In this document: in pieces, positions 37,721-53,070 of the stretch
Numbering within the stretch: the first letter of the stretch is position 1
Layout of the letters: the number at the start of each line of letters is the position of its first letter
Source: a virus
Reading direction: 5' to 3' (one strand)
Length of the DNA: 64,000 nucleotides
IMG/VR virus record: IMGVR_UViG_3300014205_000222
Translations under genes and position numbers: made by a program
The notes under the pieces: model-generated
What the model was told of the DNA's origin: nothing
What the model saw: only the letters and a program-made list of their open reading frames with translations
Databases searched by the model: none

Positions 37721-37724
37721 AGAA

Positions 37725-39202: not shown

Positions 39203-39392
39203 GGGTATATATTATAAACGCAAAACTATAAAAAGAAATCGTTGACATATAAGATATAATATATATCAAACCATATAATTTAAAACGTGGTTGGTTTTTT
39301 AAAAAAATAAGATTGCAAAGCGCATTTACTCAAAATAGTCGTAATGTTTAAATACTAAACAAACACCAATATATATAAGGTGATTTACGAAC

Positions 39393-39728: not shown

Positions 39729-39738
39729 GAACCACATT

Positions 39739-40224
39739 TCACAACTTTTTTACATTTGTATTACCAAGTGCATCACGGAGTAAAAAATACCAGTGTGTTG
39801 TGGTATTGTGTCCATCTTGCACAGCAAAAGACACAAAATATTTATAAAAATATGATTTAGATACATCAAATGTATAATCAAAATCGTCGTGGTATTCTCC
39901 AGAATACAACTCGTATAACCCACCGCCACGATCCATAGTTCCACCATCCGAGCCATATATTTTCAGTGTTGCTACATCCGCACGGCTATCAAAACTATGT
40001 TTGACAAAAATATAATCCTTTTCATATATAACTTCTAAAACGTTTCCAGAATCATCATCTGTATTATCAACACCGAAAACAAATCCATATAATACGTACC
40101 CAACTCCCAAAATAACAGTAAGAATCAAAAAAAACGAAACGATTCTTAAAAATTTTGTGTACAGCGTAGGCTCATTCAAATCCGGGTCTACAAATTGTAC
40201 TGGGTGTTTAGAACGCACCGTCAT
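39739..40224 (-). CDS. signal-anchored protein (161 aa)
   Basis: ORF track; N-terminal TM. Confidence 0.45.
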   Translation of the reverse strand: MTVRSKHPVQFVDPDLNEPTLYTKFLRIVSFFLILTVILGVGYVLYGFVFGVDNTDDDSGNVLEVIYEKDYIFVKHSFDSRADVATLKIYGSDGGTMDRGGGLYELYSGEYHDDFDYTFDVSKSYFYKYFVSFAVQDGHNTTTHWYFLLRDALGNTNVKKL

Positions 40225-40240
40225 AATACCATAAAATCAA

Positions 40241-40732
40241 TTATACACACTGAATGTTTCCCTTGCGGAAATCATCTGCATCTTCTTCTTCCGCCTTGCG
40301 CTTTTTTCTTCCCAAAAACGAAAACAAACCGCGCTTTTTCTTTTTCGGTTTCGGTTGTTTAGAAGTTTCGGAAGGTTCAACCCCAAACAATGGCTGCAAC
40401 TCTCCCCATTTATCTGGTTGGGTTGGTCTCTGCCCGCGCGCAGGATTCACCTGTTCTTGATGCGGTTGCGGAAATTCGTTATTTTGTTGGTTATCTTCTG
40501 CAAACAAATCAAAAACTTCTTTTACCGACAACCGCTTTTGTGAAGTTCCTATATATGGTTGATATGTTTCATTAAACTCTTCATCTGATAAAATTATTTG
40601 TTCTCCTTCTGGAGTATTTACAAGCCACTCCCCTTCTTTAGCTTCGATATCATCACCATTTTCACCAGCAACTAATATATCTTCTTTCATTCTCACCGCA
40701 TCGACAACGACGGGTTTTTGCATATATTTCAT
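40241..40732 (-). CDS. hypothetical acidic/basic-tailed protein (163 aa)
   Basis: ORF track; C-terminal KPKKKKRGLFSFLGRKKRK. Confidence 0.45.
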   Translation of the reverse strand: MKYMQKPVVVDAVRMKEDILVAGENGDDIEAKEGEWLVNTPEGEQIILSDEEFNETYQPYIGTSQKRLSVKEVFDLFAEDNQQNNEFPQPHQEQVNPARGQRPTQPDKWGELQPLFGVEPSETSKQPKPKKKKRGLFSFLGRKKRKAEEEDADDFRKGNIQCV

Positions 40733-40786
40733 ACCATATATACTATACCGCCAAATCCTTAAAATACTTGCGGGTTATGACACAAA

Positions 40787-40859
40787 CGCCCCCGCCGCGA
40801 TTTGAACGCGGATCTTACGGGTTAGAAGCCCGATAGGATGTCCATTACCCCACGGAGGC
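40787..40859 (-). tRNA. tRNA-Arg-UCU: tRNA-Arg(UCU)
   Basis: Acceptor GCCUCCG/CGGGGGC, loop CUUCUAA, T-arm CCGCGUUCAAAUCGCGG. Confidence 0.75.
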
Positions 40860-40946
40860 AGGGTATATATTTATTTTACAGATATAAAAACATTTCACAA
40901 AATTCAAAAAGCATTATATAGTTCGCCCAAACAAAGCACCGGGTTA

Positions 40947-40979
40947 AATATATATAATTTAAACACACAACACACTGTC
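40947..40979 (+). promoter_or_regulatory. conserved leaderless promoter AAATATATATAATTTAAACACACAAC (copy 1)
   Basis: TATA ~25 nt upstream of ATG 40980; near-identical copy at 41567-41597. Confidence 0.5.
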
Positions 40980-41345
40980 ATGGATAACGACAAACACTTT
41001 GACATAAATACACAAGATGCAATTTTGTGGAACAAATTCCACATTGATTTAATCAGAGAATGTATTGGGAAAACTGATAATATCAATGAACCTCTATGCA
41101 GACATGTTGATATTATTTCCAGAGAACTGGCATTGAAAGGTATTCAAATATGTCGCGTGTGTGGAAAACCACTTCCATCCGGTGAAGGCAGATTCAACGA
41201 TCATCTGGTATTAAAACACGAAATGTGCATCCAACCAATATGTATTGCATGCTCAAAAACAAACCCCGATGCATTCCACTGTGCGTTTGAAAACGGCGTG
41301 AATAGATACAAAAATGTAATCAAATCCATTTACCCACGCGGTTAG
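40980..41345 (+). CDS. Cys-rich protein (121 aa)
   Basis: ORF track; CRVCGKPLPSGE…CIACSK. Confidence 0.45.
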   Translation: MDNDKHFDINTQDAILWNKFHIDLIRECIGKTDNINEPLCRHVDIISRELALKGIQICRVCGKPLPSGEGRFNDHLVLKHEMCIQPICIACSKTNPDAFHCAFENGVNRYKNVIKSIYPRG

Positions 41346-41347
41346 AG

Positions 41348-41539
41348 ATGAACAAAAACAAAAAAATTATAGCACCCATCAAATGCCCTGTGTGCGGGTC
41401 TGATATTATATCACACGGTATTGTATGGAGATGCACCACGCGGGGTTGTGTTTTTGTAGCCCCAAGACGATGTAAACACGACCCATCCGGCTATACCCTT
41501 GCACCCAACACAGAGTATTGGAAACAGTATCGTCGTTAA
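41348..41539 (+). CDS. zinc-ribbon protein (63 aa)
   Basis: ORF track; CPVCGS…CTTRGC. Confidence 0.45.
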   Translation: MNKNKKIIAPIKCPVCGSDIISHGIVWRCTTRGCVFVAPRRCKHDPSGYTLAPNTEYWKQYRR

Positions 41540-41566
41540 AATAATAAATTTAATTTTATTGCAAAG

Positions 41567-41597
41567 ACATATATAATTTAAACACAAAAACTTATAT
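41567..41597 (+). promoter_or_regulatory. conserved leaderless promoter ACATATATAATTTAAACACAAAAAC (copy 2)
   Basis: TATA ~24 nt upstream of cca ATG 41598. Confidence 0.5.
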
Positions 41598-43028
41598 ATG
41601 GTAATTAAAAAACAATCTCACAAAACTATAAAAAAAACATCGAAAGTTACACCCGCGCGCATTAAAAAAAGAATAATAAAAAGGAAAAAACGAATAAACC
41701 CGGAACAAATACCGCGCACTGCTCATAACATAACCTCAATGTTGAATCGACATGGTGCAACATGTTATATTGTAGGCGGATTCCCACGAGATACAATTCG
41801 AGGAATTTCTGCCAAAGATATAGATATTGAAGTGCACGGGTTAGATATCGACACTATAGCACAAATCTTGTCAAAACACTTTTCAGTAAATTATGTCGGG
41901 AAATCGTTTGGCGTGCTTAAAGTCAAAGAACCCGGTTCAACCGAGGAAATAGATGTGTCTGTACCGCGCGCAGACAGTGTTGGAAGAAAACCAGATGTCA
42001 CGTTTTTCAAAAATGCAACCCCAAAAGACGCAGCTTCAAGAAGAGATTTTACAATTAATGCTTTAATGTGGGATACAAAAACAAACACAATGGTTGACCC
42101 ATATGGTGGTATGCAAGATTTAAAATCTGGAACAATACGTTCAATATCCCAAAAAAGTTTTACAGATGACCCTCTCCGAGTTGTACGCGCTGCACAGTTT
42201 GCATCGCGGTTTGGCTATTCAATTGAACCTGAAACCGTTACCATGGCAAAACAATCTACACTACATGGTCTATCGATGGAACGTATACGTGAAGAAATGT
42301 TAAAAGCATTATTAAAGAGTAAAGCCCCATCAAGATTTTTCAATTCTCTCGATGGCATGGGGCAACTGTCTGCAGTTTTTCCAGAAATAGCAATTTTAAA
42401 ATCTATACCTCAAGATGAATATCACCACCCGGAGGGAAATGTATATACCCACACAATGATGGTTCTAGACCGTGTTCCAAACGACCCTATACTACGTTTA
42501 ACAGCATTACTCCACGATACTGGAAAGGCAGTCACGACATCAAACTCCAATGGGAGAATAAAATCGATTGGACACGAAAGACAAAGCACGATAATTGCAG
42601 AGAGATTTCTGCGCAAATTCAAATTCGACAACGCAACTATAAAAATGGTTTTGCCACTTGTAGATAACCACATGATTCCCGGGTTTTTGATAAATTCCGG
42701 AACAAAAATAACACTAGCAAAAAAGAACGCACTTATCGCACGCGTAGCCGGTGGTTATTCAAAAATTATGCGCGACCCACGAGAAGCACTAGAAAAATAT
42801 AAATATTTAATATCATTTGCAATTGCAGACCATGGTGCGGATTACTACAGCGACAAATTCTTGACACTCCCTCCAATACAACACTACGTATCCCACATCG
42901 ATGCACGCGCGCTTTCTGAAAAATACCAAGGAAAAGCACTCGGAGATGCGATTGTCGAGAGATATACAAACCAGATAAATACACCACCAAAACAAATGCG
43001 AAAAATGAGAAAGTTAACGAAGAGATAG
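41598..43028 (+). CDS. cca: CCA-adding tRNA nucleotidyltransferase, class II (bacterial/eukaryal type) with HD phosphohydrolase domain
   Basis: GGFPRDTIRG…AKDIDIEV head motif; HD motifs HHPEGNVYTHT and LLHDTGK; 476 aa. Confidence 0.8.
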   Translation: MVIKKQSHKTIKKTSKVTPARIKKRIIKRKKRINPEQIPRTAHNITSMLNRHGATCYIVGGFPRDTIRGISAKDIDIEVHGLDIDTIAQILSKHFSVNYVGKSFGVLKVKEPGSTEEIDVSVPRADSVGRKPDVTFFKNATPKDAASRRDFTINALMWDTKTNTMVDPYGGMQDLKSGTIRSISQKSFTDDPLRVVRAAQFASRFGYSIEPETVTMAKQSTLHGLSMERIREEMLKALLKSKAPSRFFNSLDGMGQLSAVFPEIAILKSIPQDEYHHPEGNVYTHTMMVLDRVPNDPILRLTALLHDTGKAVTTSNSNGRIKSIGHERQSTIIAERFLRKFKFDNATIKMVLPLVDNHMIPGFLINSGTKITLAKKNALIARVAGGYSKIMRDPREALEKYKYLISFAIADHGADYYSDKFLTLPPIQHYVSHIDARALSEKYQGKALGDAIVERYTNQINTPPKQMRKMRKLTKR

Positions 43029-43100
43029 TCCCGACCAGATTCGAACTGGTGTTTCAAGCTCCAGAGGCTTGTGTGCTTGACCAAACTACACTACGGGACT
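43026..43100 (-). tRNA. tRNA-Gln-CUG: tRNA-Gln(CUG)
   Basis: Acceptor AGUCCCG/CGGGACU, loop CUCUGGA, T-arm ACCAGUUCGAAUCUGGU; overlaps cca stop codon. Confidence 0.7.
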
Positions 43101-43104
43101 ACAA

Positions 43105-43174
43105 TGGGGATAGTGCGAATTGAACACACATCGCCCGGTTTGGAGCCGAGGTTCTTACCATTAGAGATATCCCC
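43105..43174 (-). tRNA. tRNA-Trp-CCA: tRNA-Trp(CCA)
   Basis: Acceptor GGGGAUA/UAUCCCC, loop CUCCAAA, T-arm GUGUGUUCAAUUCGCAC; short D-arm. Confidence 0.65.
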
Positions 43175-43176
43175 AA

Positions 43177-43248
43177 TGAACGTAGCAGGAATCGAACCTG
43201 CCATCTTCGCCATGTCAAGGCGACATCTTACCACTCGACTATACGTTC
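43177..43248 (-). tRNA. tRNA-Val-GAC: tRNA-Val(GAC)
   Basis: Acceptor GAACGUA/UACGUUC, loop UUGACAU, T-arm GCAGGUUCGAUUCCUGC. Confidence 0.7.
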
Positions 43249-43251
43249 AAA

Positions 43252-43325
43252 CGGACGCACGGAGATTTGAACTCCGACAAACAGATTAAGAATCTGTGAT
43301 GCAATCCAAACTACATTATACGTCC
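43252..43325 (-). tRNA. tRNA-Lys-CUU: tRNA-Lys(CUU)
   Basis: Acceptor GGACGUA/UGCGUCC, D-stem AUGU/GCAU, loop UUCUUAA, T-arm CGGAGUUCAAAUCUCCG. Confidence 0.75.
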
Positions 43326-43659
43326 AAATTGTACAGGGGGTTGCACCACCGGTTGGTTTGAGCTCTTTACCATCCTGAAACGTGCATCATCCAAACATAG
43401 AACTTTGTGTACACCTAAACATAGACCCCTGCACAAAATAATATATGCATTCAAGATATTTAAATCATTCTATCACAGATTGTTTTTGGGATATATTTTA
43501 CCGCATCGAAATAACAAGCCACACAAAAAAACAATAATATAGAGCGACAATTGATGTTATAATCACAATTCCAACAATAAAGACAGAAAATGGACATATT
43601 ATCACATCCCCCCGGGAAGTCACTCCTATCGGTTCACACGTCAAATAAATTGTCATCTA

Positions 43660-43730
43660 CGGGCGCGAGGGGAATCGAACCCCCTCTATCGGATTAAAAG
43701 TCCTGTGTGCGACCACTACACTACGCACCC
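43660..43730 (-). tRNA. tRNA-Lys-UUU: tRNA-Lys(UUU), weak anticodon stem
   Basis: Acceptor GGGUGCG/CGCGCCC, D-stem GUGU/GCAC, loop CUUUUAA, T-arm GGGGGUUCGAUUCCCCU; two mismatches at top of anticodon stem. Confidence 0.55.
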
Positions 43731-43733
43731 AAT

Positions 43734-43806
43734 TGTCCGGTCAGGATTTGAACCTGAGTCGCCAGATCATGGGTCTGGTATTCTGTACCAAGCTATACCA
43801 CCGGAC
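43734..43806 (-). tRNA. tRNA-CAU: tRNA-Met/Ile2(CAU) with C33
   Basis: Acceptor GUCCGGU/ACCGGAC, anticodon stem CCAGA/UCUGG loop CCCAUGA, T-arm UCAGGUUCAAAUCCUGA; long D-loop. Confidence 0.55.
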
Positions 43807-43984
43807 AACGATGTGTGCGGTGCCCGATTAAGCACATCCTCTCGGGCACCATTTAGCAGGTTTTACGTTTCGAAACCTATTGCTGTTAAACGTAGCCACG
43901 TTATTAACGAATAAGGGCAAGACGAGTGTTTTTTAGGTCACACTTAAACGACCCCCCACAACATAGTGCTACATGTGTGAGGAA
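43807..43984 (-). ncRNA. structured 178-nt spacer inside tRNA array (candidate small RNA / processing element)
   Basis: Perfect 9-bp hairpin GGUGCCCGA…UCGGGCACC (43819-43856), palindrome CGUUUCGAAACG within AGGUUU…AAACCU hairpin; no ORF. Confidence 0.3.
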
Positions 43985-44056
43985 TGCGCCCAGCAGGAGT
44001 CGAACCTACAACCGACACGGTGTAAACGTGCCGTGCTACCATTGCACCATGAGCGC
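43985..44056 (-). tRNA. tRNA-Val-UAC: tRNA-Val(UAC)
   Basis: Acceptor GCGCUCA/UGGGCGC, D-stem GUGC/GCAC, loop UUUACAC, T-arm GUAGGUUCGACUCCUGC. Confidence 0.8.
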
Positions 44057-44109
44057 GCGAATATTACTATTTGTCGTTATAATATATTAATTTAATGGTG
44101 TTTGTGGCA

Positions 44110-44649
44110 TCAATTGCCACAAATATATTCACCTATATCAAACAAATTGTTGGCAAGGTATACTGTTCCACGCATATACGAATTCCATGGAAATTCCAAT
44201 CCAGTTGCCAGTATACCTTTACAATATGCAACATTCAGTGTTTTTGGTGAATCGTCTATAACAACCTTCGTTGTGCCGTTAAACATTTTTGTCTTGTCGT
44301 ATGATATATGAATATCATCATATCGAATGTTATGTTTTTTCATCCACCGCGCAAGCAACTCTCTGGATTCTTCGCGCCGGTGCGAAGCTATCAGAACATT
44401 GAAATCTTCCTGCAGTCTACGCATAAATGAATCTGCCCCATCTAAAGGCGCGCATTCCATAATACGCATTTGGGCATTGTGTGCAGCTTCGAAAAAATCT
44501 TCTTCGCACATATAACCATGGTAAAAATCCCACTCGTTCCAATCAGTGTGTTTTGGTATTTCGGGATTATATTTGACAAGTTCTTCATAAAAAACAGGCG
44601 CAAAATCACACAATGTATTGTCAACATCTACAACAGCATCTTTAGACAT
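44110..44649 (-). CDS. HAD-superfamily phosphatase, 5'(3')-deoxyribonucleotidase (NT5C)-like
   Basis: N-terminal VVDVDNTLCDF (DxDxT HAD motif I); 179 aa typical of NT5C family. Confidence 0.5.
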   Translation of the reverse strand: MSKDAVVDVDNTLCDFAPVFYEELVKYNPEIPKHTDWNEWDFYHGYMCEEDFFEAAHNAQMRIMECAPLDGADSFMRRLQEDFNVLIASHRREESRELLARWMKKHNIRYDDIHISYDKTKMFNGTTKVVIDDSPKTLNVAYCKGILATGLEFPWNSYMRGTVYLANNLFDIGEYICGN

Positions 44650-44732
44650 CCAAATTACTCCAACCTAACAAATTTAAAAGATTTCCGCATTATTATATGT
44701 TTTAAAACTATTTTAAAGTTTGCATTTAAAAA

Positions 44733-44804
44733 TGCTCCCGGCGGGATTCGAACCCACAACGTGGGGTCGAAAGCCCCACATGATTGCCACTACACTACGG
44801 GAGC
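44733..44804 (-). tRNA. tRNA-Glu-UUC: tRNA-Glu(UUC)
   Basis: Acceptor GCUCCCG/CGGGAGC, anticodon stem UGGGG/CCCCA loop CUUUCGA, T-arm GUGGGUUCGAAUCCCGC. Confidence 0.75.
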
Positions 44805-44808
44805 GCAG

Positions 44809-44882
44809 CGCCACCGACAGGACTCGAACCTATATCGACCTACCTTAACAGGGTAGCGTATTACCAAATCTACCACAGTGGC
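44809..44882 (-). tRNA. tRNA-Asn-GUU: tRNA-Asn(GUU)
   Basis: Acceptor GCCACUG/CGGUGGC, loop CUGUUAA, T-arm AUAGGUUCGAGUCCUGU. Confidence 0.75.
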
Positions 44883-44886
44883 AAAA

Positions 44887-44958
44887 TGGAGCCAGAGTGA
44901 ATCGAACACCCAACACGGGATCTTCAGTCCCGCGCATTCCCAATTATGCTATAGCTCC
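44887..44958 (-). tRNA. tRNA-Phe-GAA: tRNA-Phe(GAA)
   Basis: Acceptor GGAGCUA/UGGCUCC, D-stem GCAU/AUGC, loop CUGAAGA (G37), T-arm GGUGUUCGAUUCACU. Confidence 0.8.
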
Positions 44959-44961
44959 GTA

Positions 44962-45038
44962 TCGGTGTAGTGGGATTTGAACCCACGGCTTTCCGGTTCG
45001 CACCCGGACTGTCTAAATCCAGACTGACATATACACCA
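44962..45038 (-). tRNA. tRNA-Arg-GCG: tRNA-Arg(GCG) (archaeal-type Arg isoacceptor)
   Basis: Acceptor UGGUGUA/UACACCG, anticodon stem UCCGG/CCGGA loop GUGCGAA, T-arm GUGGGUUCAAAUCCCAC; 5' end +/-1. Confidence 0.65.
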
Positions 45039-45040
45039 AA

Positions 45041-45115
45041 TCCGTCGGGCAGGATTCGAACCTGCGGGGTGACCGGTCTACAGCCGGTTGCGTTGGGCCG
45101 CTCTGCCACCGACGG
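45041..45115 (-). tRNA. tRNA-Tyr-GUA: tRNA-Tyr(GUA) with C1-G72 (archaeal/eukaryal identity pair)
   Basis: Acceptor CCGUCGG/CCGACGG, loop CUGUAGA, T-arm GCAGGUUCGAAUCCUGC. Confidence 0.75.
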
Positions 45116-45117
45116 AA

Positions 45118-45192
45118 TGTCCCGAGTGGGATTTGAACCCACAGCCATTTGCTTGCAAAGCAACCGTTCTACCGGGTTGTAACTATCGGGAC
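45118..45192 (-). tRNA. tRNA-UGC: tRNA with anticodon UGC (Ala-decoding) but lacking G3:U70
   Basis: Acceptor GUCCCGA/UCGGGAC (all Watson-Crick), loop UUUGCAA, T-arm GUGGGUUCAAAUCCCAC. Confidence 0.6.
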
Positions 45193-45256
45193 TTGTATGG
45201 CGAGTTTAATATGTTTATTTTAAAACAATTTATAGTTTTCCATTGGATGAATAATA

Positions 45257-45919
45257 TCAATATGAATTTGCTATCTGCAATTTTGATTGGAAGTATTCAC
45301 CGGTATCTACATTCATTGCGGTCAATTTACCATTCCATCCCGCACCGGTATCCATAAGAGTAAGATTTCCAATTGTTAGTGGTTTTGTGTCCTTTGTTAT
45401 GAATTGTGTTGTTGTGTGACCAATAAATATATGCGGATAATCGACAACATTTCCATCGAGAATATAGTTTATCAACTGCCTATCCCATACTAATGTTTCC
45501 AAATCATTATATTCTACTTTTTTCGTAGGGTTAAACCCACCGTGTACATATACACGTCCTTTGGAGTCTATGTAATATGGTTTTCCAGATTCAAGAAACT
45601 TTATGTGGCTGTCCGGGACACTTTTATATGAAAAACCATACGCGCGCATGGTTGCAAGTCCACCCTGATGAACCCACACAGGAAGTTCGATTCCGGTTTT
45701 CATCCAGTTCAATGCCCATAAATCGTGGTTTCCAATAACCAATATACAATTCTTAATTTTTAAAAGTTCTTCGATTACTTTCTGTGTGTCATATCCACCA
45801 TCAACAACATCACCTAAAACGATAAGTGTGTCACGGTCATAATCAAAAGACATCTTTTCAATTACTTCGCACAGAGCAACAAAACGCCCATGTATATCGC
45901 CAATAACATAAACACACAT
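45257..45919 (-). CDS. calcineurin-like metallophosphoesterase (lambda PPase / ApaH-like)
   Basis: GDIHGR, LGDVVDGG, GNHD motifs in order (PPP-family motifs I-III). Confidence 0.7.
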   Translation of the reverse strand: MCVYVIGDIHGRFVALCEVIEKMSFDYDRDTLIVLGDVVDGGYDTQKVIEELLKIKNCILVIGNHDLWALNWMKTGIELPVWVHQGGLATMRAYGFSYKSVPDSHIKFLESGKPYYIDSKGRVYVHGGFNPTKKVEYNDLETLVWDRQLINYILDGNVVDYPHIFIGHTTTQFITKDTKPLTIGNLTLMDTGAGWNGKLTAMNVDTGEYFQSKLQIANSY

Positions 45920-45945
45920 AAATAACCAACACCGTGTTAAAAAGT

Positions 45946-47472
45946 TTAAATTTTTGTTGTTGGGATTTTGAAATTTTCAATTTCCTGTATCATTGTCTCG
46001 CGGTTTGTCTCGAAGAGGCTTATATAATTGAATATCTTATCACTGTATCCAGCAACATTAACTACATTTTTATGACCTTCTGGTAACGTTGCAAGCCCAT
46101 ATCCTGCGAGATCTACAAGATACACGAACACATTTGGATTTATATTCCTCTGATATTTTAGAAACTCTTTTACAAATGATTCTGAACCATATGCCGATGT
46201 ATTATACAGCACCATATCACTGAAAAGCACAACCCGGTCAACAAACTTTTTGTTATCGTTGAGATACCGAATTGCCTTCCAACCATTTGTAGAGTGCCCA
46301 AGATGCTGTTCTGTAACACTTTCGATATTCTGTAATATTGAGCTGCCACCCATTGGGATAACCGCAAAATCTGTTCCAAATGCTGAAATAATAGATTTTG
46401 TCGATATATAATCCAATATAGACCCGTACAGAGATGCAACCTGCGCGCGAGATACCACAGATTTTTCACTGAGGGCAACCGTCATACTACCACTAACATC
46501 AATCGATGTAAATGTGATACCACCAAGTTTTGGAACATTATTTAAACTAATTTGTAGAGCCTTCTCCAAGCCTTTCAAAACCACATTAACGTTTTCCGTT
46601 GCTACATCGTATTTTCTAGTTTTTACAATAGAATGCGCCGTATAAAACCTGTATGGGAATTGTTTTGATGACCGTATGGCACGTTCATCTACAATGCGCG
46701 ACATATAAAGTTCTGGTTCGATTCCAAACTTAAGAAAATTATTTAGATTACGGAGTAGCGCCATATACCCCATGTCGGGGATTTCCTTTTCCCAATTTTC
46801 TTTGGTAGAACCTTCACGCATTATGTTAGCATTCCACGACGAATTAACAACCTTTTTGTTGATAATTCTTTCAAAGACATCAGCCATATCCTTATTCAGC
46901 GGTTTTGGGTGGACGACGCACATCGCGTCTTTAAGGCTTACACTCGACCCATCACCGAGATACTTACCAAACTGATACTCATCGAAATTATAAAAAGCGC
47001 GTGATAAACCCTTTTTAAGAACCATTGGTACATGTGCACGAGCCTTTTCATTATGCGAATTCAACTGAAACTGATACGCCAGCATTTCAGTAATTTCGTC
47101 AGGTCTCTGAATTGTAGAGGTAACAATTTTACTAAAATCGTTGTGACCTTTGCCAGACGGAAGATTTGCAGCTTCCACTAACAACATGATAGGAACGGTA
47201 CGAAGATACAAGTTGTGGCGCACATATGCCGCAAGATTAAACACAAACTTCGGGTCTAATTCGGTGACTTCTCGGATTAAGTCTTTAAGTTCTTTATCCG
47301 ATTGTGTAGCACTGGTATAAAACTTTGGCTCACCGACCATTGCAGATGCAACACGAAGGTAAAGTTCCAATTTCTTTGACACATTAAACGCGATTCCGCC
47401 TTCAAAATTAGTTGTTACATCGCCACGTGATTCTAAAACGCTTGTTGTCGTTTTTTTCGTATTAAACTTCAT
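45946..47472 (-). CDS. rsr: Ro60/Rsr-like TROVE-domain RNA-binding protein with C-terminal vWA/MIDAS
   Basis: 508 aa; N-terminal …NFEGGIAFNVSKKLELYLRVASAMVGEPKFYTS… resembles TROVE start (N.AGG.AF…RL.RFLILGS…TYY); C-terminal DVSGSM MIDAS motif; AAGGTG SD upstream. Confidence 0.65.
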   Translation of the reverse strand: MKFNTKKTTTSVLESRGDVTTNFEGGIAFNVSKKLELYLRVASAMVGEPKFYTSATQSDKELKDLIREVTELDPKFVFNLAAYVRHNLYLRTVPIMLLVEAANLPSGKGHNDFSKIVTSTIQRPDEITEMLAYQFQLNSHNEKARAHVPMVLKKGLSRAFYNFDEYQFGKYLGDGSSVSLKDAMCVVHPKPLNKDMADVFERIINKKVVNSSWNANIMREGSTKENWEKEIPDMGYMALLRNLNNFLKFGIEPELYMSRIVDERAIRSSKQFPYRFYTAHSIVKTRKYDVATENVNVVLKGLEKALQISLNNVPKLGGITFTSIDVSGSMTVALSEKSVVSRAQVASLYGSILDYISTKSIISAFGTDFAVIPMGGSSILQNIESVTEQHLGHSTNGWKAIRYLNDNKKFVDRVVLFSDMVLYNTSAYGSESFVKEFLKYQRNINPNVFVYLVDLAGYGLATLPEGHKNVVNVAGYSDKIFNYISLFETNRETMIQEIENFKIPTTKI

Positions 47473-47514
47473 TTAATTCACACCTTGGAGATAAGCTACC
47501 ACACATGTTTTAAA

Positions 47515-47841
47515 TGGATTTCATTGAATGATAACAGTTTTTTCAGTCATATGGTTTGTCCGCCCGGACATAATATGTTCAAGTCCAATCCACCCCACAT
47601 ATTATTTTTGCAGGATTTCATCGAATTATAACAGGGTTTTCAGTCGGTTATAGGAAATAATATCACTTGGTAATGCGATGAACCCACAACCTGCGCATCC
47701 CTGCTTACTGGGAGAACTTATGAACGACTTAAACTTAAACTTAATCTATAACGCATTTCGGTGGGTTTTCAGACGAACATGGCAAAATACCTTGTTTAGA
47801 GGTAGAGTTCCACAATGATGAAACCACGTTCTGCGCATCCC
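47515..47841. repeat. tandem imperfect repeats in rsr-upstream noncoding region (candidate Y-RNA-like ncRNA genes)
   Basis: Units 47634-47701 and 47763-47841 share termini GGGUUUUCAG[UA]C … GAUGAA[CA]CCAC…CUGCGCAUCCC; extra copies of GGATTTCAT[TC]GAAT[GT]ATAACAG at 47515 and 47613; degenerate unit ~47536-47600. Confidence 0.55.
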
Positions 47842-47959
47842 ACTCCAATGCAACAATATTATTGTGTAACTAATAGTATATATACATTTCCAAACATTTC
47901 ACGAAAAGCATGTAAAAATTACACATATGCAGATATTATCAACCCGCACGTTAAAAAAA

Positions 47960-48289
47960 TTAATTTGTTGGAGGGTCGGCGCGCGTGTCAAGTTCCATTT
48001 TCTTTTCTAAATCTGAACCAGATTTATATGATAAAACCGCAAATGCGCCACCGAAGATTAACAAAAACAACCCTTGCGCCGTAAATACAAATACACTGTT
48101 AGCTGACACACCACCAGATGAAATTGCCGCAGCAACAAATGCCAGCATCACAATTCCCAAAAGCACAAAAATCAACCCTACCCCGGTCAACATGGCAAAC
48201 AGACTCATACGCATGTTGTCATTTTTTTCATTATCATAATCACGTATTTCTTCATATACGATTTCGCGAATTTTCTTTGCTTTAACCAT
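47960..48289 (-). CDS. 2-TM membrane protein (109 aa)
   Basis: ORF track. Confidence 0.4.
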   Translation of the reverse strand: MVKAKKIREIVYEEIRDYDNEKNDNMRMSLFAMLTGVGLIFVLLGIVMLAFVAAAISSGGVSANSVFVFTAQGLFLLIFGGAFAVLSYKSGSDLEKKMELDTRADPPTN

Positions 48290-48497
48290 ACATATTATAT
48301 ACGTAAAAACAAACTTAAAAACATTTCGTTAATTTTTCAAAAATTTTGTGATACTTTCAACTTCCTTGAAACTACATGCCGGAACATTAAACACAGCCCC
48401 ACACATGTTACAACGAATTCCTTTTTTACCACCGTGATCCCCATAGTGGAATGATATATCGTCACTCTTACAGTTTACACACAATATCAAAATCATT

Positions 48498-48860
48498 TTA
48501 TCGTGATGGGGCTGTAGGAATATTCAACTGTTTATTATATTCATCAGGGCACTGGCAATACGCATATATTATCTTATCCGAAGTATCAAAACCATCGAAA
48601 AACACCATATTGTTAAAATCTGTGTAACCACATTCAAAACACTCTTCACGAGATTCTATACAGGAATAATAATGCGGGGCAACGCGCGTGTCATATAGTT
48701 CAATAAACCAACCGTCGTCACACATGGTTAACAAATCATACAACCGAACCCAACCGCTAAACGCCGGAGAAATGTTGTTATTCTTCAGGCTATCCACAAA
48801 ACCGGGTTTTGCAAACTTATCTGTATCCTTCTTCAAATAAACACATCCTTTTAACCACAC
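48498..48860 (-). CDS. Cys-containing hypothetical protein (120 aa)
   Basis: ORF track. Confidence 0.4.
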   Translation of the reverse strand: MWLKGCVYLKKDTDKFAKPGFVDSLKNNNISPAFSGWVRLYDLLTMCDDGWFIELYDTRVAPHYYSCIESREECFECGYTDFNNMVFFDGFDTSDKIIYAYCQCPDEYNKQLNIPTAPSR

Positions 48861-48876
48861 CAGTTTGGTTGTGGGA

Positions 48877-48948
48877 TGGGCGTTAAGGGAGTCGAACCCA
48901 TATCCTCACGGTTATGAGCCGTGCGCTCCGCCATTGAGCTAAACGCCC
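48877..48948 (-). tRNA. tRNA-Met-CAU: tRNA-Met(CAU), elongator-like (G1-C72)
   Basis: Acceptor GGGCGUU/AACGCCC, D-stem GCUC/GAGC, loop CUCAUAA, T-arm AUGGGUUCGACUCCCUU. Confidence 0.75.
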
Positions 48949-48958
48949 CAATTTGAAA

Positions 48959-49032
48959 TGGGACTTCCCGGATTTGAACCGGGGGCAACACGTCCCAAAC
49001 GTGCAAGGTTAGCCAGACTACCCCAAAATCCC
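48959..49032 (-). tRNA. tRNA-Pro-UGG: tRNA-Pro(UGG)
   Basis: Acceptor GGGAUUU/AAGUCCC, loop UUUGGGA (G37), T-arm CCCGGUUCAAAUCCGGG. Confidence 0.7.
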
Positions 49033-49098
49033 TCAATATAGTATTGAAATGGAAAATATTTATACCTTTCGTTTTTCAAAAAAATAAAGTTTGTTTTT

Positions 49099-50643
49099 TT
49101 ATTTTTTAGAGGTTTTCGCAGTTTTCTTTACAAAACCATCGACACCCTGATTTGAAGATTCAACCGATTTTATATCAACCGGAGACGGAACCGTTCCACT
49201 AACTGGCGGCTGTGGTTGTGGTGGTGTTACTACAGTTGCTTTTTTTGTATCGTCTACATACGAACCCTTCGAAGGTTCTGGCGCGGTTGCAGGTTTTTTA
49301 ATAATGGTTTGCATCACGTTTGCCAACCGGGAATACAGATCCGGGTCAGATTCCTTAACAATATCCATCAGGGTTGAAAAACTGCCAGCCGTTGATAGCC
49401 CGCCCTTCGGAGTGAAGAGATCCATGAAGTCTTCTGGTTTTCCAGAACCATAATATTTTATAGTTGCATTCGCAAGTGCCTCTGCAAGTGCAAGACCAAT
49501 ACGCTCATCCTTTTCAATCGTACGGATTGCCGTTGCATATTCCTGCTGTTTTCTCTGTGCATCTGCATATTTGTCAAGACCTTCTGCCTCTGCGAATTTC
49601 TTGGCTCTTAATACATCGGCTTCGGATGTACCTTTCTTACGAATAATTTCGGCTTCGGCAGAACCCATTGCCTCAATTTTCGCACCTTCTCCGCGACCTG
49701 TAAGTTCAAGTTTCTGTTTTTCTCCTTCTGCAAGTTCAATTGCCATGCGCTTTTCTCCATCGGCAGTACGAACTTTGGCATCTGCTTCAATTTCCGCAAA
49801 CATGACTTTAGATGCTCGCTCAACATCCATCGCTTTCTCTACCGCGCGTTTCTTTTCTGTAGAAACTACCTGATTCTTTTCTTCTTCGCGCTTGCCAACA
49901 GATTCTTCAACTTCAATCTTTCTCGTTTGTGCAGCCTGATAAGCTTCTACCTCTGAAATTTCTGCCTGTCTCTTTCTGGTTGCAATCTCCTGTCTAGACA
50001 ACGAATTAATTTCTGCCTCTTTTTTTGCAGATATATCATGAATTACGCTTGTATGATCAGAATCTTTGAAATCTACAATCGAAACGTTGATAATTTCGAC
50101 ACCCCAACGAAGCATATCATCTTTAATATCTGACAACACATGGTCTGCAATCTCGCTTCGCTTTGCAATTACATCCTCAACTGCAAAATTAGCAGTTGTC
50201 TTACGAATAGCGGCAATAATGATTTCCTGAATCCCGGTCTTGAAATCTGTCATAGTTTTCCCCGGGAAACGCTGGGCTGCTTCTAAAACATTGTTGACAC
50301 GACAATAAACACTAGCATCAATAGTAAACCGCGCATTTCCTTTTGCAAAAGTTTGATAATTCTCAATCTTAATTTCCATATTTTCAAGCGACATGCGGGT
50401 TACAATAACACCAATGAATGGCATCCACCACGGAAACTGATAATACACCGTGTTTGTACCACGCTCTTCAGTAACCGTTTTATCTGCGGAATAAATTTCA
50501 ACAGCGCCCTTACGCGTAACAACATCTGCATATTTTGGTGGCACAACTCCCCTGAGAGTTACTAGATAAATAACCACCAACACTGCAAAAATACAACCCA
50601 TCACAAACAGAAACGATGTCTGCAAATCCATATCAAAAATCAT
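49099..50643 (-). CDS. SPFH/band-7 (flotillin-like) membrane-scaffold protein
   Basis: N-terminal TM, SPFH-like core, long EA/KR coiled-coil (…EAEINSLSRQEIATRKRQAEI…), Pro-rich tail; 514 aa like YqiK/flotillin. Confidence 0.65.
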   Translation of the reverse strand: MIFDMDLQTSFLFVMGCIFAVLVVIYLVTLRGVVPPKYADVVTRKGAVEIYSADKTVTEERGTNTVYYQFPWWMPFIGVIVTRMSLENMEIKIENYQTFAKGNARFTIDASVYCRVNNVLEAAQRFPGKTMTDFKTGIQEIIIAAIRKTTANFAVEDVIAKRSEIADHVLSDIKDDMLRWGVEIINVSIVDFKDSDHTSVIHDISAKKEAEINSLSRQEIATRKRQAEISEVEAYQAAQTRKIEVEESVGKREEEKNQVVSTEKKRAVEKAMDVERASKVMFAEIEADAKVRTADGEKRMAIELAEGEKQKLELTGRGEGAKIEAMGSAEAEIIRKKGTSEADVLRAKKFAEAEGLDKYADAQRKQQEYATAIRTIEKDERIGLALAEALANATIKYYGSGKPEDFMDLFTPKGGLSTAGSFSTLMDIVKESDPDLYSRLANVMQTIIKKPATAPEPSKGSYVDDTKKATVVTPPQPQPPVSGTVPSPVDIKSVESSNQGVDGFVKKTAKTSKK

Positions 50644-50645
50644 AT

Positions 50646-50864
50646 TTATACCGTCCTTTTACTCATCAACTTCACACTTCCATCATTCACTTGTGGGGAA
50701 TTGTTAGGTGTCAACAATTCGGAAACTTCGCAATCTCCGTCCCTCCAAGTGAGAAGAATTATTTTACCATTTGAAATATCATCATAAAAATCAAGCAAAT
50801 CTTTTTTACTTGCAAAAACAATTTTATCTGATGTTTTTTCTATTACTCTGACTTCATTTGTCAT
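50646..50864 (-). CDS. small protein (72 aa), possible NfeD-like partner of SPFH protein
   Basis: ORF track; immediately upstream/co-transcribed with SPFH gene; partner assignment is inference. Confidence 0.35.
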   Translation of the reverse strand: MTNEVRVIEKTSDKIVFASKKDLLDFYDDISNGKIILLTWRDGDCEVSELLTPNNSPQVNDGSVKLMSKRTV

Positions 50865-51134
50865 ATTTGTTCAACCGTCCAAACCATTACGGACAACAAT
50901 GGTATTCTAACATCTTTCCCGTCACAATTCATAGATAAAATCAATCCATGTGCTTCACCGCCATACCGTGTGGCGTTATATGTTTCTCGAACACCATTTG
51001 TCCACGTAACCTCAACTCGATACACTAATACACCTTCAAAAAATGCACATTGTCATAAATGAAATACAATCATGCACTAACATTATAATTTGATATTAAA
51101 ACTATAAAAACATATCCAAACAAAAAAGTTAAAG

Positions 51135-51206
51135 GGGAGATGGAGGGGATTGAACCCTCTCCAGCGCGGTCACAGCGCGCCGTGCTACCAATACACCACA
51201 TCTACC
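51135..51206 (-). tRNA. tRNA-His-GUG: tRNA-His(GUG) with genomically encoded G-1
   Basis: Anticodon stem GCGCG/CGCGC loop CUGUGAC, T-arm GAGGGUUCAAUCCCCUC, 8-bp acceptor incl. G-1:C73 (one U.C mismatch). Confidence 0.7.
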
Positions 51207-51209
51207 ACA

Positions 51210-51289
51210 AGCACTGGGCAGGAATCGAACCTGCAACCCACATGGAGCAGATCTGCAATCTGCCGCAATATCCATTCTGCCACCAGTGC
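51210..51289 (-). tRNA. tRNA-Cys-GCA: tRNA-Cys(GCA) with unusually long (12-nt) variable region
   Basis: Acceptor GCACUGG/CCAGUGC, D-stem GCAG/UUGC, loop UUGCAGA, T-arm GCAGGUUCGAUUCCUGC. Confidence 0.6.
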
Positions 51290-51296
51290 AATTTGA

Positions 51297-51368
51297 CGCC
51301 CCTGATGGGAATTGAACCCATTTCTTCAGGTTCGAAGCCTGATATGCGTTCCGGTGCACCACAGAGGC
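51297..51368 (-). tRNA. tRNA-Arg-UCG: tRNA-Arg(UCG)
   Basis: Acceptor GCCUCUG/CAGGGGC, anticodon stem UCAGG/CCUGA loop CUUCGAA, T-arm AUGGGUUCAAUUCCCAU. Confidence 0.75.
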
Positions 51369-51400
51369 AGTGCATATACTATATATTCAAACCACTATAT

Positions 51401-52000
51401 TTATTTTTTTGTGTTCTGTCGTTTTTTCTTTGGAGTTGGTGCTTTTAAACGTCGCTCATTTATCAGTTTCGTATCTAAAATCTTTAATTTTTTCGGGTCA
51501 AATGCAATAAGATGTTTAACACCACCATGTTTTTGTATGAGAACCCCATCGTAGCCCAAGCTTACCATATTTTTAAGATATACTTCTGGCTCATCCCTAT
51601 AAAAATCATAAGACACAGTTTGAAATGCATCATGAGCCGTCTGATTATATGTTAAAATTAATCTATATGCATTTTCAAACGCTGGAACGTGTCTATCTGT
51701 ATCAAAATTTGTCAGGGTGTCTTCTAAATTTGGCGCACGAATCAACATCTTTCGAATATCCCCATGGTTGGGGGGGCGTGTAGTTGACACAAATTTTCTA
51801 ACTGTTGCTCGTACAACCATAATATATTTTCCATACATACGAGCATCATCTATCGTATTTGTTAAATAGAACCCATAACCCTCCTGTTCAGTTCCTTTCC
51901 CAAGATATTTATATTCAAATTCTCTGAATGGAACATTTGAACCATGATAAAATAATTCTGAATACAACACATATAAATATATGTTACAATAATATATCAA
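51401..52000 (-). CDS. hypothetical protein (199 aa) with basic C-terminal tail
   Basis: ORF track; no confident family (weak resemblance to ADP-ribosyl/phosphotransferase folds not supportable). Confidence 0.45.
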   Translation of the reverse strand: MIYYCNIYLYVLYSELFYHGSNVPFREFEYKYLGKGTEQEGYGFYLTNTIDDARMYGKYIMVVRATVRKFVSTTRPPNHGDIRKMLIRAPNLEDTLTNFDTDRHVPAFENAYRLILTYNQTAHDAFQTVSYDFYRDEPEVYLKNMVSLGYDGVLIQKHGGVKHLIAFDPKKLKILDTKLINERRLKAPTPKKKRQNTKK

Positions 52001-52005
52001 ATTTT

Positions 52006-52167
52006 CTAATCGTTATGTTTTGACGATATAATTTTAGGGCATAATTCTTCGGTTAAAACATATTGGCAATTGTATTTCCCGCCATTTTGTTCCAGTTGGT
52101 TCTCAAAACACTTTTCACACGATAAAACAATTTTTCGAATAATATCACAATTTATATCACTTATCAT
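52006..52167 (-). CDS. small Cys-rich protein (53 aa; listed ORF start 52218 overlaps tRNA)
   Basis: Internal Met MISDINCDIIRKIVLSCEKCFEN…; ends 3 nt before tRNA-Gly. Confidence 0.35.
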   Translation of the reverse strand: MISDINCDIIRKIVLSCEKCFENQLEQNGGKYNCQYVLTEELCPKIISSKHND

Positions 52168-52169
52168 AA

Positions 52170-52240
52170 TACGAGCGGCGGGCATCGAACCCACACCTGT
52201 TCCATGGCAAGGAACCATTCTACCATTATACTACACTCGT
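52170..52240 (-). tRNA. tRNA-Gly-GCC: tRNA-Gly(GCC)
   Basis: Acceptor ACGAGUG/CGCUCGU, anticodon stem GUUCC/GGAAC loop UUGCCAU, T-arm GUGGGUUCGAUGCCCGC. Confidence 0.65.
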
Positions 52241-52243
52241 ATA

Positions 52244-52316
52244 TGCGCCCAGCCGGGTTTGAACCGGCATCTATAGGTTGGAAGCCTATAATTCTAACCA
52301 ATTATACCATGAGCGC
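52244..52316 (-). tRNA. tRNA-Gly-UCC: tRNA-Gly(UCC)
   Basis: Acceptor GCGCUCA/UGGGCGC, anticodon stem AUAGG/CCUAU loop CUUCCAA, T-arm GCCGGUUCAAACCCGGC. Confidence 0.7.
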
Positions 52317-52319
52317 ACA

Positions 52320-52393
52320 TGGACGTGAGAGGACTTGAACCTCTAACCCCTGCTGTATCAGAACAGTGCGCTAACCAATTGCGCCACACGTCC
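52320..52393 (-). tRNA. tRNA-Ile-GAU: tRNA-Ile(GAU)
   Basis: Acceptor GGACGUG/CACGUCC, D-stem GCGC/GCGC, loop CUGAUAC, T-arm AGAGGUUCAAGUCCUCU. Confidence 0.8.
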
Positions 52394-52396
52394 TAA

Positions 52397-52468
52397 CGTC
52401 CGGTGCGGGTACTGCCCCCGCCTCATAACCGTGACAGGGTTATATGCTGTCTAATACACCAACCGAAC
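52397..52468 (-). tRNA. tRNA-Asp-GUC: tRNA-Asp(GUC) with non-canonical T-loop (GGCAGUA)
   Basis: Acceptor GUUCGGU/ACCGGAC, D-stem GUGU/GCAU, anticodon stem UAACC/GGUUA loop CUGUCAC, T-stem GCGGG/CCCGC but loop lacks U54-U55; keeps the array's 3-nt spacing. Confidence 0.55.
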
Positions 52469-52471
52469 AAA

Positions 52472-52537
52472 ATGGGTGGTGCCGGAGTTGAACCCAACAC
52501 TTTTACCACCATGGGTGGATCAATCCCCATGGCACCC
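52472..52537 (-). pseudogene. degenerate tRNA-like element
   Basis: Correct 3-nt spacing; T-loop UUCAACU and 3' ACCACCC-A but T-stem and acceptor pair poorly (5/7); only ~66 nt. Confidence 0.3.
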
Positions 52538-52668
52538 ACGGAGCATCCCTAATACAATACGCATGTATTTCCGTCTTTTACGTGCATGCATCCGGAAACA
52601 CGGCAAGATCGTTGTCGGGTCTTGTACCGCCATACAATAAGATTGCGACTCTTTGCATTGTATGGAAA

Positions 52669-52741
52669 TCCTCCCGGAAGGATTCGAACCTTCTTCGCCG
52701 GATTCAAAGTCCTGCATCATTACCAAGTAGACCACGGGAGT
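52669..52741 (-). tRNA. tRNA-Gln-UUG: tRNA-Gln(UUG)
   Basis: T-arm GAAGGUUCGAAUCCUUC, loop CUUUGAA, D-region GGUCUACUUGGUAAUGAU like eukaryal/archaeal tRNA-Gln; acceptor (A)CUCCCG/CGGGAG(G) with first-pair mismatch. Confidence 0.65.
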
Positions 52742-53070
52742 ATACTGCAACTACCTATATGTAATCAAATATATTTATGCTTTTCCATATGTTTGCGAAA
52801 AGAAACACAACATTCAGAAAATGGTGGGGAAGGAGTGGAACCCACCACCCTCAAAAACCATTCAAACGGGGGTTTAGAATAGTTTCGCTTAAAATTGCGC
52901 GCCAGAATGGATTGTCAAACTTATATCCAATGATAAATGGCGTATGCCAATTCGACGTGTATCCACCTGACACACAATACTATATGACACCACAACATTA
53001 TAAATATTTTGGTGGCACTCCAACGGGCACCCAATAATTTTTTATTCAGTAAAAACAATATACATATATC

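Follow-up and report, generated by a model that had tools for sequence, protein, structure and literature searches.

A Ro60 gene preceded by candidate Y RNAs in a probable methanogen virus

Ro60 genes with adjacent Y RNAs are established in bacteria and phages (PMC4201824, PMC7824862), with the Y RNAs adjoining Ro60 in more than 250 of them (PMC4201824), and the locus described here raises the question of whether the same arrangement is carried by a virus of an archaeal host. The locus lies in IMG/VR virus record IMGVR_UViG_3300014205_000222, a stretch of 64,000 nucleotides (nt) that was analyzed as a whole and is referred to below as the window. Its minus strand encodes a Ro60-like protein and, in the noncoding region upstream of that gene, tandem repeats that a preliminary description, made from the letters alone, had proposed as Y-RNA-like elements. 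Our reading, to which we give a probability of about 0.75, is that the locus carries a virus-borne Ro60–Y RNA ribonucleoprotein module. The gene at its center is as follows:

45946..47472, minus strand: Ro60 gene (TROVE and vWA/MIDAS), 508 amino acids, identified by Pfam, PHROG, PDB alignment and AlphaFold/Foldseek

Is the protein a Ro60, or does it share only a generic vWA domain with that family? The preliminary description had ascribed to this open reading frame (ORF) a TROVE-like N-terminus and a C-terminal DVSGSM motif, and both are borne out: the Pfam TROVE model PF05731 matches with an E-value of 2.1e-23 (83.7 bits against a cutoff of 23), and the DVSGSM MIDAS motif occupies residues 325-330. 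The vWA_Ro60 model PF25045 spans residues 323-487 at 23.1 bits, under its cutoff of 27.7, and PHROG 850, an 'RNA-binding protein' family, matches with E 2.5e-48. Nearly the whole protein (residues 20-493) aligns with Ro60 of the Thermus phage phiLo (PDB 9KOP/9L5Y; E 1.1e-25, ~26% identity), and in this sequence alignment the DVSGS of residues 325-329 pairs with the DVSGS of phiLo Ro60. An AlphaFold2 model built with 15 homologues in its input (pLDDT 81.2, pTM 0.75) retrieves Ro60 structures at all of Foldseek PDB ranks 1-13, over 496-557 aligned columns and with TM scores of 0.59-0.80 (phiLo 0.73-0.80, Deinococcus 0.66-0.68, Xenopus and human 0.59-0.69); generic vWA domains rank below these 13 and match the C-terminal part of the model. 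Judged from its sequence and predicted structure, the protein is a Ro60 and not a generic vWA protein. It is not a close Rsr orthologue, since the NCBIfam Rsr equivalog model scores far under its cutoff (24.5 versus 900 bits). On the assumption of an 8-residue numbering offset between paper and chain, phiLo residues R137/K141/K142/R178, whose RNA-contact roles have been described (PMC12135203), align to R145/K153/K154/K190 of the window protein and are kept or conservatively replaced, and phiLo R163 and R173 align to G175 and C185.

If the protein is a Ro60, does the DNA in front of it encode a partner RNA? The gap between the Ro60 ATG and the stop of the next minus-strand ORF (47473-47960, 488 nt) holds only plus-strand ORFs of 41-89 amino acids, in agreement with the roughly 490 bp of noncoding DNA described earlier. 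A repeat finder picks out three pairs of segments within it: 47677-47701 with 47817-47841 (25 nt, 84% identical, spaced 140 nt), 47634-47657 with 47763-47786 (24 nt, 75% identical, spaced 129 nt) and 47516-47548 with 47613-47645 (33 nt, 88% identical). The conserved unit ends that had been proposed are recovered in these pairs, and a pattern joining both end motifs occurs once in the 64-kb window versus 0 times in 100 shuffles. Two to three tandem units had been suggested, of which two, U1 and U2, are intact and the third is decayed. In minus-strand order, and with scores from the covariance model R1 introduced below, the features are:

47877..47889, minus strand: promoter-like box AAATGTATATATA, 34 nt upstream of the U1 stem, with 1 mismatch to 'box A' AAANNTTTATATA
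47761..47843, minus strand: Y-RNA-like unit U1, 83 nt (model R1 76.5 bits, E 5e-16)
47843-47839 with 47765-47761, minus strand: U1 stem 1, GUGGG/CCCAC
47838-47832, minus strand: U1 5' loop, AUGCGCA
47831-47824 with 47782-47775, minus strand: U1 stem 2, 8 bp, GAACGUGG/CCAUGUUC
47774-47766, minus strand: U1 3' loop, GUCUGAAAA
47630..47705, minus strand: Y-RNA-like unit U2, 76 nt (model R1 71.2 bits, E 1e-14)
47705-47699 with 47636-47630, minus strand: U2 stem 1, AGCAGGG/CCCUGUU
47698-47692, minus strand: U2 5' loop, AUGCGCA
47691-47684 with 47653-47646, minus strand: U2 stem 2, 8 bp, GGUUGUGG/CUAUAACC
47645-47637, minus strand: U2 3' loop, GACUGAAAA
about 47604-47536, minus strand: decayed third copy and hairpin (repeat finder; model R1 0.3 bits)

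U1 and U2, which lie 158-371 nt upstream of the Ro60 ATG, share one fold on the minus strand: a terminal stem, an asymmetric internal loop (5' AUGCGCA, 3' G(U/A)CUGAAAA), an 8-bp stem 2 and a variable apex. The loop AUGCGCAG is invariant between the two units, and compensatory changes set the two units apart at two pairs of stem 1 and three pairs of stem 2. The unit ends had been expected to pair into a bulged terminal helix; they do pair, but the structure consists of two helices (5-7 bp and 8 bp) around an asymmetric, conserved internal loop. The motifs had also been quoted on the wrong strand, as plus-strand reverse complements: the minus-strand folds of the two units have z-scores of -1.4 and -3.1 (U2 has a minimum free energy of -25.0 kcal/mol, z -3.1), whereas the plus-strand folds (z -0.5 and +0.1) are no better than shuffles, and all model matches described below fall on the Ro60 strand. 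One stem-2 pair is G-U in 7/7 sequences of the alignment introduced below and would be a C-A mismatch on the other strand, which supports the minus strand. Ro60, both units and 30/30 tRNA genes of the window are on the minus strand. The third copy keeps the U2 3' loop and trailer (33 nt, 88% identical) and lacks the 5' motif GGGAUGCGCAG as well as the terminal-stem CCC; its 0.3 bits with model R1 rule it out as a genuine Y RNA.

Is this structure selected, and does it belong with Ro60? More than 1000 metagenomic proteins match the window Ro60 at E<=1e-10, the nearest being 59, 57, 47 and 47% identical, and the four closest lineages, taken with their flanks, are L002, L003, L004/L005 and L006-L008. 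All four are syntenic with the window (Band_7 in L002, tRNA arrays, units, Ro60, metallophosphoesterase), and each has 1 or 2 units built to this design, which precede Ro60 and share its strand. In an alignment of 7 units from the window and these four lineages, 93% of cells pair and 7/15 pairs show double changes, compared with 40-47% pairing in slid controls. Model R1, a covariance model built from those 7 units only, was searched against both strands of the window and 85 other Ro60 loci from IMG/VR and relatives (597 kb), and gave 40 matches at E<=1, including 33 further units; all 40 are on the Ro60 strand, and all except two lie directly upstream of Ro60. Across the 39 distinct units, compensatory changes occur in 15/15 pairs and the share of paired cells is 93%, compared with 59% in shuffles, while slid controls reach 41-49%; this alignment was fitted to the model, which somewhat favours the structure. 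A broader covariance model, R2, built from the R1 matches and searched against 667 kb, yields 250 units at E<=0.1 in about 90 loci, again all on the Ro60 strand. Among the best 148 R2 units outside the window (58 loci, up to 7 units per locus), 130 lie upstream of Ro60, 18 downstream and 0 inside the gene. Covariation establishes that the RNA structure is selected and conserved, and strand and position tie the module to Ro60 genes. The preliminary description's comparison to a Ro60-adjacent Y RNA arrangement is therefore upheld by a covariation-backed structure and by a tandem module beside Ro60 genes in many phages, and its proposed check of conserved structure against promoter duplication comes out on the side of structure.

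How do the window units relate to the known classes of Y RNA? Unit lengths across the family are bimodal (~72-90 nt and ~130-150 nt), which is consistent with two classes mixed in tandem arrays, one short and YrlB-like and the other long, tRNA-like and YrlA-like. Phage units with the 5' motif GAUGCGNAG...GG(U/A)UACUUC match Rfam YrlA at 27-44 bits (E down to 1e-6), and the YrlA gathering score of 69 bits misses all of the family units tested (27-44 bits). In L002 and L003 a second, longer unit has an apex in which a canonical T-arm, GUUGGUUCGAUCCCAAU, precedes a covarying hairpin of 7-8 bp, and gives a weak Rfam tRNA match of 24 bits; from its sequence we take this long unit to be a tRNA mimic of YrlA type, with no convincing identification of a D-arm in either lineage. 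There is no long T-arm unit in the window, and U1 and U2 are best classed as YrlB-like Y RNAs of the short kind that lacks a tRNA-like domain. Chen et al. (2014, PMC4201824) found such a domain in one or more Y RNAs of each species. The published Y RNA motif is GNCGAA(N0-1)G or CGAA (PMC4201824, PMC12135203); the 5' motif of our family (consensus G-N-(U/A)-G-(C/U)-G-N-A-G in A5, an alignment of 150 family units from 59 sources) holds its CG(N)A(G) core, with CGCAG in the window units.

Several results weigh against reading U1 and U2 as functional Y RNAs. A leave-clade-out covariance model, R3 (71 units, none from the window or its four relatives), finds the relatives with falling scores, namely the L004 unit (54.8 bits, E 1e-12), the L006 unit (52.4 bits, E 5e-12), the L003 long unit (29.1 bits, E 1.6e-5), the L002 short unit (22.9 bits, E 8.7e-4) and the L002 long unit (22.6 bits, E 1.1e-3); it gives U1 20.0 bits (E 0.0056, a rough calibration) and does not recover U2 at E<=1. 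A sequence-only profile hidden Markov model without the window clade finds no match in the window. The checks against Rfam that had been proposed also came out negative: in 47300-48100, even at E<=10, Y_RNA (RF00019) and YrlA (RF02553) have no match and the matches to other families are unrelated and due to chance, and U1 and U2 have no tRNA-like domain, as judged from the Rfam tRNA model, ARAGORN and the absence of a GGUUCRAUCC T-loop. The window units depart from the family at positions that are 93-100% conserved in the 150 aligned units (UACUUC becomes UUCAUC / GUUCAUC, and the 3' loop end UUCUC becomes AAAAC), so that Ro60 might recognize them differently or not at all. On the minus strand of the window the units are not followed by any terminator-like site, and discrete small transcripts would therefore need processing. 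Finally, PNPase, the bacterial effector of Ro60, is to our knowledge absent from archaea, so the downstream mechanism is not simply transferable. Judged by model scores, the window units are the most diverged end of a graded series, because the R3 scores fall through 55, 52, 29, 23 and 23 to 20 bits or to no recovery, and the family signal is largely structural.

The departures from the family motifs follow a pattern of their own. Along the window lineage the two most conserved motifs shift jointly, from UACUUC + GUUCAC through UGCAUC + GAUAAC to UUCAUC + GAAAAC (window 47817-47823 / 47766-47770 and the equivalents in L002-L006), and the (G/U)CAUC that results is the complement of the 5' loop GAUG(C), which does not vary. 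Such joint drift could reflect co-evolution with the protein, or else a pseudoknot. One in which GAUGC of the 5' loop pairs with GCAUC of the apex could form in the window, L002 and L003, but is missing from L004, L006 and the main family; wherever the two segments occur they are identical, leaving no covariation to read. Metagenome matches to the lineage pattern GGGATGCGNAGNNNGTGGNTNCATC at 6 loci were rejected as chance, the model accepting 0/6.

Could the units instead be cis-acting leader structures of the Ro60 mRNA, such as autoregulatory Ro60 sites or stability or processing elements in a long 5' untranslated region? We consider this unlikely, although the layout of the locus lends it some force: the units sit between a single promoter-like box (47877-47889) and the Ro60 start, a terminator-like signal after them on the minus strand is missing, and a further conserved hairpin stands between the last unit and the ATG in all relatives. 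Elsewhere, however, the same module occurs in arrays of up to 7, with 18 of the 148 best units downstream of Ro60, and in Salmonella the homologous YrlA and YrlB are stable, Ro60-bound RNAs cut from an operon transcript (PMC4201824). The leader reading is also compatible with the Ro60–Y RNA module, as the RNAs could be processed from the leader.

The hairpin has the core GGG(U/C)CA(G/A)ACC and was located by alignment between the last Y unit and the Ro60 start in 4/4 relative lineages; a function as leader or in processing is possible. An insert of ~32 nt appears to split the window copy. An AGGUG resembling a Shine-Dalgarno sequence can be read 8 nt ahead of the Ro60 ATG (47481..47485, minus strand), with GAGGUG/GGAGGU at the equivalent position in L002, L003 and L004. 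The copies of the hairpin are:

window 47545-47596, minus strand: conserved hairpin
L002:5930-5960: conserved hairpin
L003:275-305: conserved hairpin
L004:3910-3935: conserved hairpin
L006:3950-3975: conserved hairpin

What kind of element carries the locus? The window sequence is part of a 181.6-kb JGI contig and is also represented by a 64-kb ENA contig. Very probably the host is archaeal, and probably it is of Methanomicrobiales type, as judged from gene content and sequence signals. The minus-strand ORF at 31073-33646 encodes a full-length S-layer glycoprotein that belongs to the Methanoculleus MEMAR_RS02690 family (NF041431; 762 bits, threshold 600). This protein carries DUF3821, and a PGF-CTERM archaeosortase signal (TIGR04126) forms its C-terminus. 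In L002, the closest syntenic relative, a tRNA-Met(CAU) (L002:3125-3274) has a 76-nt intron at 37/38 that forms a perfect bulge-helix-bulge (helix, 3-nt bulge, 4-bp helix, 3-nt bulge, helix), with the anticodon-loop CUCA, including two anticodon bases, pairing with the intron; the orthologous window tRNA-Met (48877-48948) has no intron. L002 also has a histone-fold gene (CBFD_NFYB_HMF, L002:10516-10812). The sequence AAANNTTTATATA, which we take to be the classical methanogen stable-RNA 'box A', is enriched in the window (20 sites with <=1 mismatch versus 8.2 +/- 2.5 expected) and occurs 25-40 nt ahead of the tRNA arrays and ahead of U1. Exact AAANNTTTATATA boxes stand in L002 and L004 at the place equivalent to window 47877..47889, and we infer a promoter function for that box from its sequence.

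The opposing view, that the element is a bacteriophage and the locus one more phage Ro60/Y RNA cassette, we hold to be improbable. It draws on the class II (bacterial/eukaryotic) type of the CCA-adding enzyme in the window, on Ro60 relatives at 35-40% identity that are found mostly in bacterial metagenome-assembled genomes and phages, and on a replication module that matches ordinary phage families. Set against these are the full-length Methanoculleus-family S-layer glycoprotein with its PGF-CTERM signal, the bulge-helix-bulge intron and histone-fold gene of L002, the enrichment of box-A-like sites ahead of the tRNA arrays, and the identity of the best match among 50,697 phage records: 101 of these hold a Ro60 homologue, and the best E-value belongs to gp129 of the haloarchaeal virus Halogranum tailed virus 1 (HGTV-1; 31% identity, E 2e-70). 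A search of IMG/VR with the single Ro60 protein returned no close relative, the GTDB genomes hold no Ro60 relative above 39% identity (their sole archaeal match is a fragment without flanks), and a megablast of 12 kb against the same phage records gave no match. A Borg-like element was also considered, TROVE being a core Borg gene; we tentatively prefer a tailed virus, to which the phage-type replication and recombination module of the window is better suited (it comprises a Sak4-like protein, helicase, exonuclease and primase).

The weakest alternative, that the repeats are duplications with neither function nor selected structure, whether of promoters, of tRNA-like fragments in decay or of a mobile repeat, can point to the clearly decayed third copy and to the fold of the whole 488-nt region, which is no more stable than shuffles (z +0.29), but is highly improbable and largely refuted by covariation, as U1 and U2 differ by five compensatory base-pair changes with identical loops, pairing and covariation hold over the 39 distinct units from many loci, and neither the Rfam tRNA model nor ARAGORN matches the window units.

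How, then, might a virus-borne Ro60–Y RNA module work? The minus-strand order is promoter-like box, U1, U2, decayed third copy, Ro60 and a phosphoesterase of the PPP family. Transcription would start from the box at 47877-47889 and might yield one precursor shared with the Ro60 mRNA, given that no terminator-like site follows the units. The precursor would be cut to ~80-nt RNAs, whose ends would pair as the terminal stem, followed by the loop (5' AUGCGCA / 3' G.CUGAAAA), the 8-bp stem and an apex that is short and variable. If the analogy with Ro60 of frog, Deinococcus, Salmonella and phiLo holds, the loop and the stems on either side of it may dock on the outer face of the Ro60 ring, where the docked Y RNA could gate the central cavity of the ring or tether Ro60 to a host nuclease or other effector. 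During infection the particle would probably monitor or salvage tRNA and other structured RNAs that are damaged or misfolded, or else neutralize a host RNase; these roles are suggested by the 30 tRNA genes of the element, which lack CCA, together with its own CCA-adding enzyme and an RlaP-family protein. Expression, processing, Ro60 binding, effector and biological role of the units are all proposals. Candidate archaeal effectors would include the exosome, aRNase J, aCPSF or an enzyme of tRNA repair, for which the neighbouring phosphoesterase is one possibility. The genes that bear on these proposals are:

45257..45919, minus strand: PPP-family metallophosphoesterase (ApaH/PrpA/lambda-phosphatase-like; Pfam Metallophos), 26 nt downstream of Ro60
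41598-43028, plus strand: class II CCA-adding enzyme
21019-21837, minus strand: RlaP 'RNA repair pathway' nucleotidyltransferase
36585-52742, minus strand: 30 tRNA genes in several arrays, with the 3' CCA encoded in 0/30

The NCBIfam models that match the phosphoesterase are a PrpA-like one (E 5.5e-16), the ApaH N-terminus (E 9e-20) and, weakly, bacterial Pnkp (E 3.6e-4). The pairing of this gene with Ro60 is kept in 4/4 of the closest relative lineages, and the enzyme may act in RNA-end healing.

Several further features of the window stand apart from the locus. The S-layer region lies in a local GC bump (44% versus about 37%), and near the S-layer ORF (with 23822-27084, minus strand) are a GT2/GtrA glycosyltransferase, a PMT_2 mannosyltransferase and a transglutaminase-like gene; the S-layer and glycosyltransferase genes look like a host-derived cell-surface module on the virus. 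Two tRNA genes, tRNA-Lys(CUU) at 43252-43325 and tRNA-Arg(GCG) at 44962-45038, were found by Rfam and missed by ARAGORN, and an ART-PolyVal family ADP-ribosyltransferase gene (Pfam; 51401-52000, minus strand) lies between tRNA arrays. Positions 59948-60089, inside the ORF at 59743-61038, hold 11.8 copies of the 12-nt tandem repeat GGAGCCTGTTGA (94% matches, perfect register), which would encode a 4-residue peptide repeat. Window positions 1-13880 contain no ORF of >=180 amino acids, only small ORFs mostly on the plus strand, and show a strongly positive GC skew (+0.24) whose sign flips near 11 kb, where the coding strand switches.

Where does the locus stand among known Ro60 systems? It is of a known kind, Ro60–Y RNA, and reveals no new kind. 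The window and its relatives resemble the bacterial and phage YrlA/YrlB RNAs with Rsr (PMC4201824, RF02553) in that the units lie beside Ro60 on the same strand and often in tandem, their 5' and 3' ends pair, the 5' loop motif holds CG(N)A(G), and short and long tRNA-like forms coexist, the long T-arm form being that of L002 and L003. Unlike YrlA/YrlB, the window units have no RF02553 match, CGCAG in place of CGAA and no tRNA-like domain, they alter the near-invariant UACUUC and UUCUC, the host is apparently archaeal, and an RtcB/RtcA operon context is missing.

The nearest solved structure is that of phiLo (PDB 9KOP, 9L5Y), whose Ro60 binds two Y-like RNAs encoded beside its gene (PMC12135203). 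Shared with the window are a virus-encoded Ro60, two Y-like RNAs alongside it, a stem-loop-stem RNA and, if the assumed numbering offset holds, some of the basic contact residues compared above; the two systems differ in that identity is only ~26% and that the phiLo effector is the host PNPase. Our family models place two GGGUACUUC-motif units directly downstream of phiLo Ro60 (24-28 and 19-26 bits), both overlapping the hypothetical coding sequence phiLo_25, whereas the published Yrl1 and Yrl2 were picked from the upstream region by the CGAA motif (PMC12135203):

L114:3020-3089, MH673673 about 29348-29417: phiLo family-type unit
L114:3210-3295, MH673673 about 29142-29227: phiLo family-type unit

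As in the Deinococcus radiodurans Rsr-Yrn1-PNPase particle (RYPER) and metazoan Ro60, the window protein would be a ring-shaped TROVE and vWA protein, with HEAT repeats closed into a ring by the vWA domain, by its predicted fold (TM 0.59-0.69 to 2NVO, 1YVP and human 9NEN), and in those ribonucleoproteins, as proposed here, a conserved stem and an internal loop close to the paired ends serve to dock the partner RNA. The differences are 14-16% identity, no Rfam Y_RNA match and no La or PNPase context, and the GGUCCGA bulged helix of metazoans is not present as such in the window units.

Closest in setting are elements of archaea. Ro60/TROVE has been reported in Asgard Nidhogg viruses (10.1101/2021.07.29.454249), TROVE is a core protein of Methanoperedens Borgs (PMC11208441), and HGTV-1 gp129 (NC_021328) is annotated in RefSeq as an RNA-binding protein, so that the claim of the preliminary description that Ro60 is essentially unreported in archaea or archaeal viruses was overstated for the protein. 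Like these, the window has a TROVE and vWA protein encoded by what is very probably an archaeal virus or extrachromosomal element; unlike these reports, which concern the protein only, it has partner RNAs that are defined and supported by covariation. We found no description of partner RNAs of Ro60 in archaeal elements in the searchable literature. HGTV-1 itself has a weak candidate unit that scores 16.2 bits (E 0.005 in 6.5 kb); it carries AUACUUC, and its second stem is 7 bp long:

L037:2378-2477, about 67604-67703 of HGTV-1, minus strand: candidate unit ending 24 nt before gp129

From sequence comparison, U1 and U2 would, as Y-RNA candidates, be the first to be defined for an archaeal virus, and they would represent a variant with diverged docking motifs. 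The fuller proposition, for which we see the case as evenly balanced, is that they are the first defined Y RNAs of the archaeal domain, a methanogen virus deploying a Ro60–Y RNA particle in which the tRNA-like module has been lost, both near-invariant recognition motifs have been re-tuned, and an archaeal effector is used instead of PNPase.

Ro60–Y RNA particles have been studied in animals (autoimmunity, RNA quality control) and in bacteria (RYPER, the RtcB operon), and for archaea there is passing mention of the protein gene alone; with a pair of Y RNAs that is backed by covariation and lies in a probable virus of a methanogen, the RNA half of the system reaches archaeal elements. The family alignment also yields a compact Ro60-docking consensus (stem, G.UGCG.AG, 8-bp stem, UACUUC ... 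G..U.UUCUC, stem), and this docking module is far commoner in phage genomes than Rfam YrlA shows, with its 250 units in about 90 loci and often 3-7 per locus. The window lineage, in which conserved motifs drift along with the protein, should be useful for mapping RNA–protein recognition. If the proposition is true, the weak HGTV-1 candidate would add an experimentally tractable archaeal system, and the Ro60/Y RNA partnership would span all three domains through viruses.

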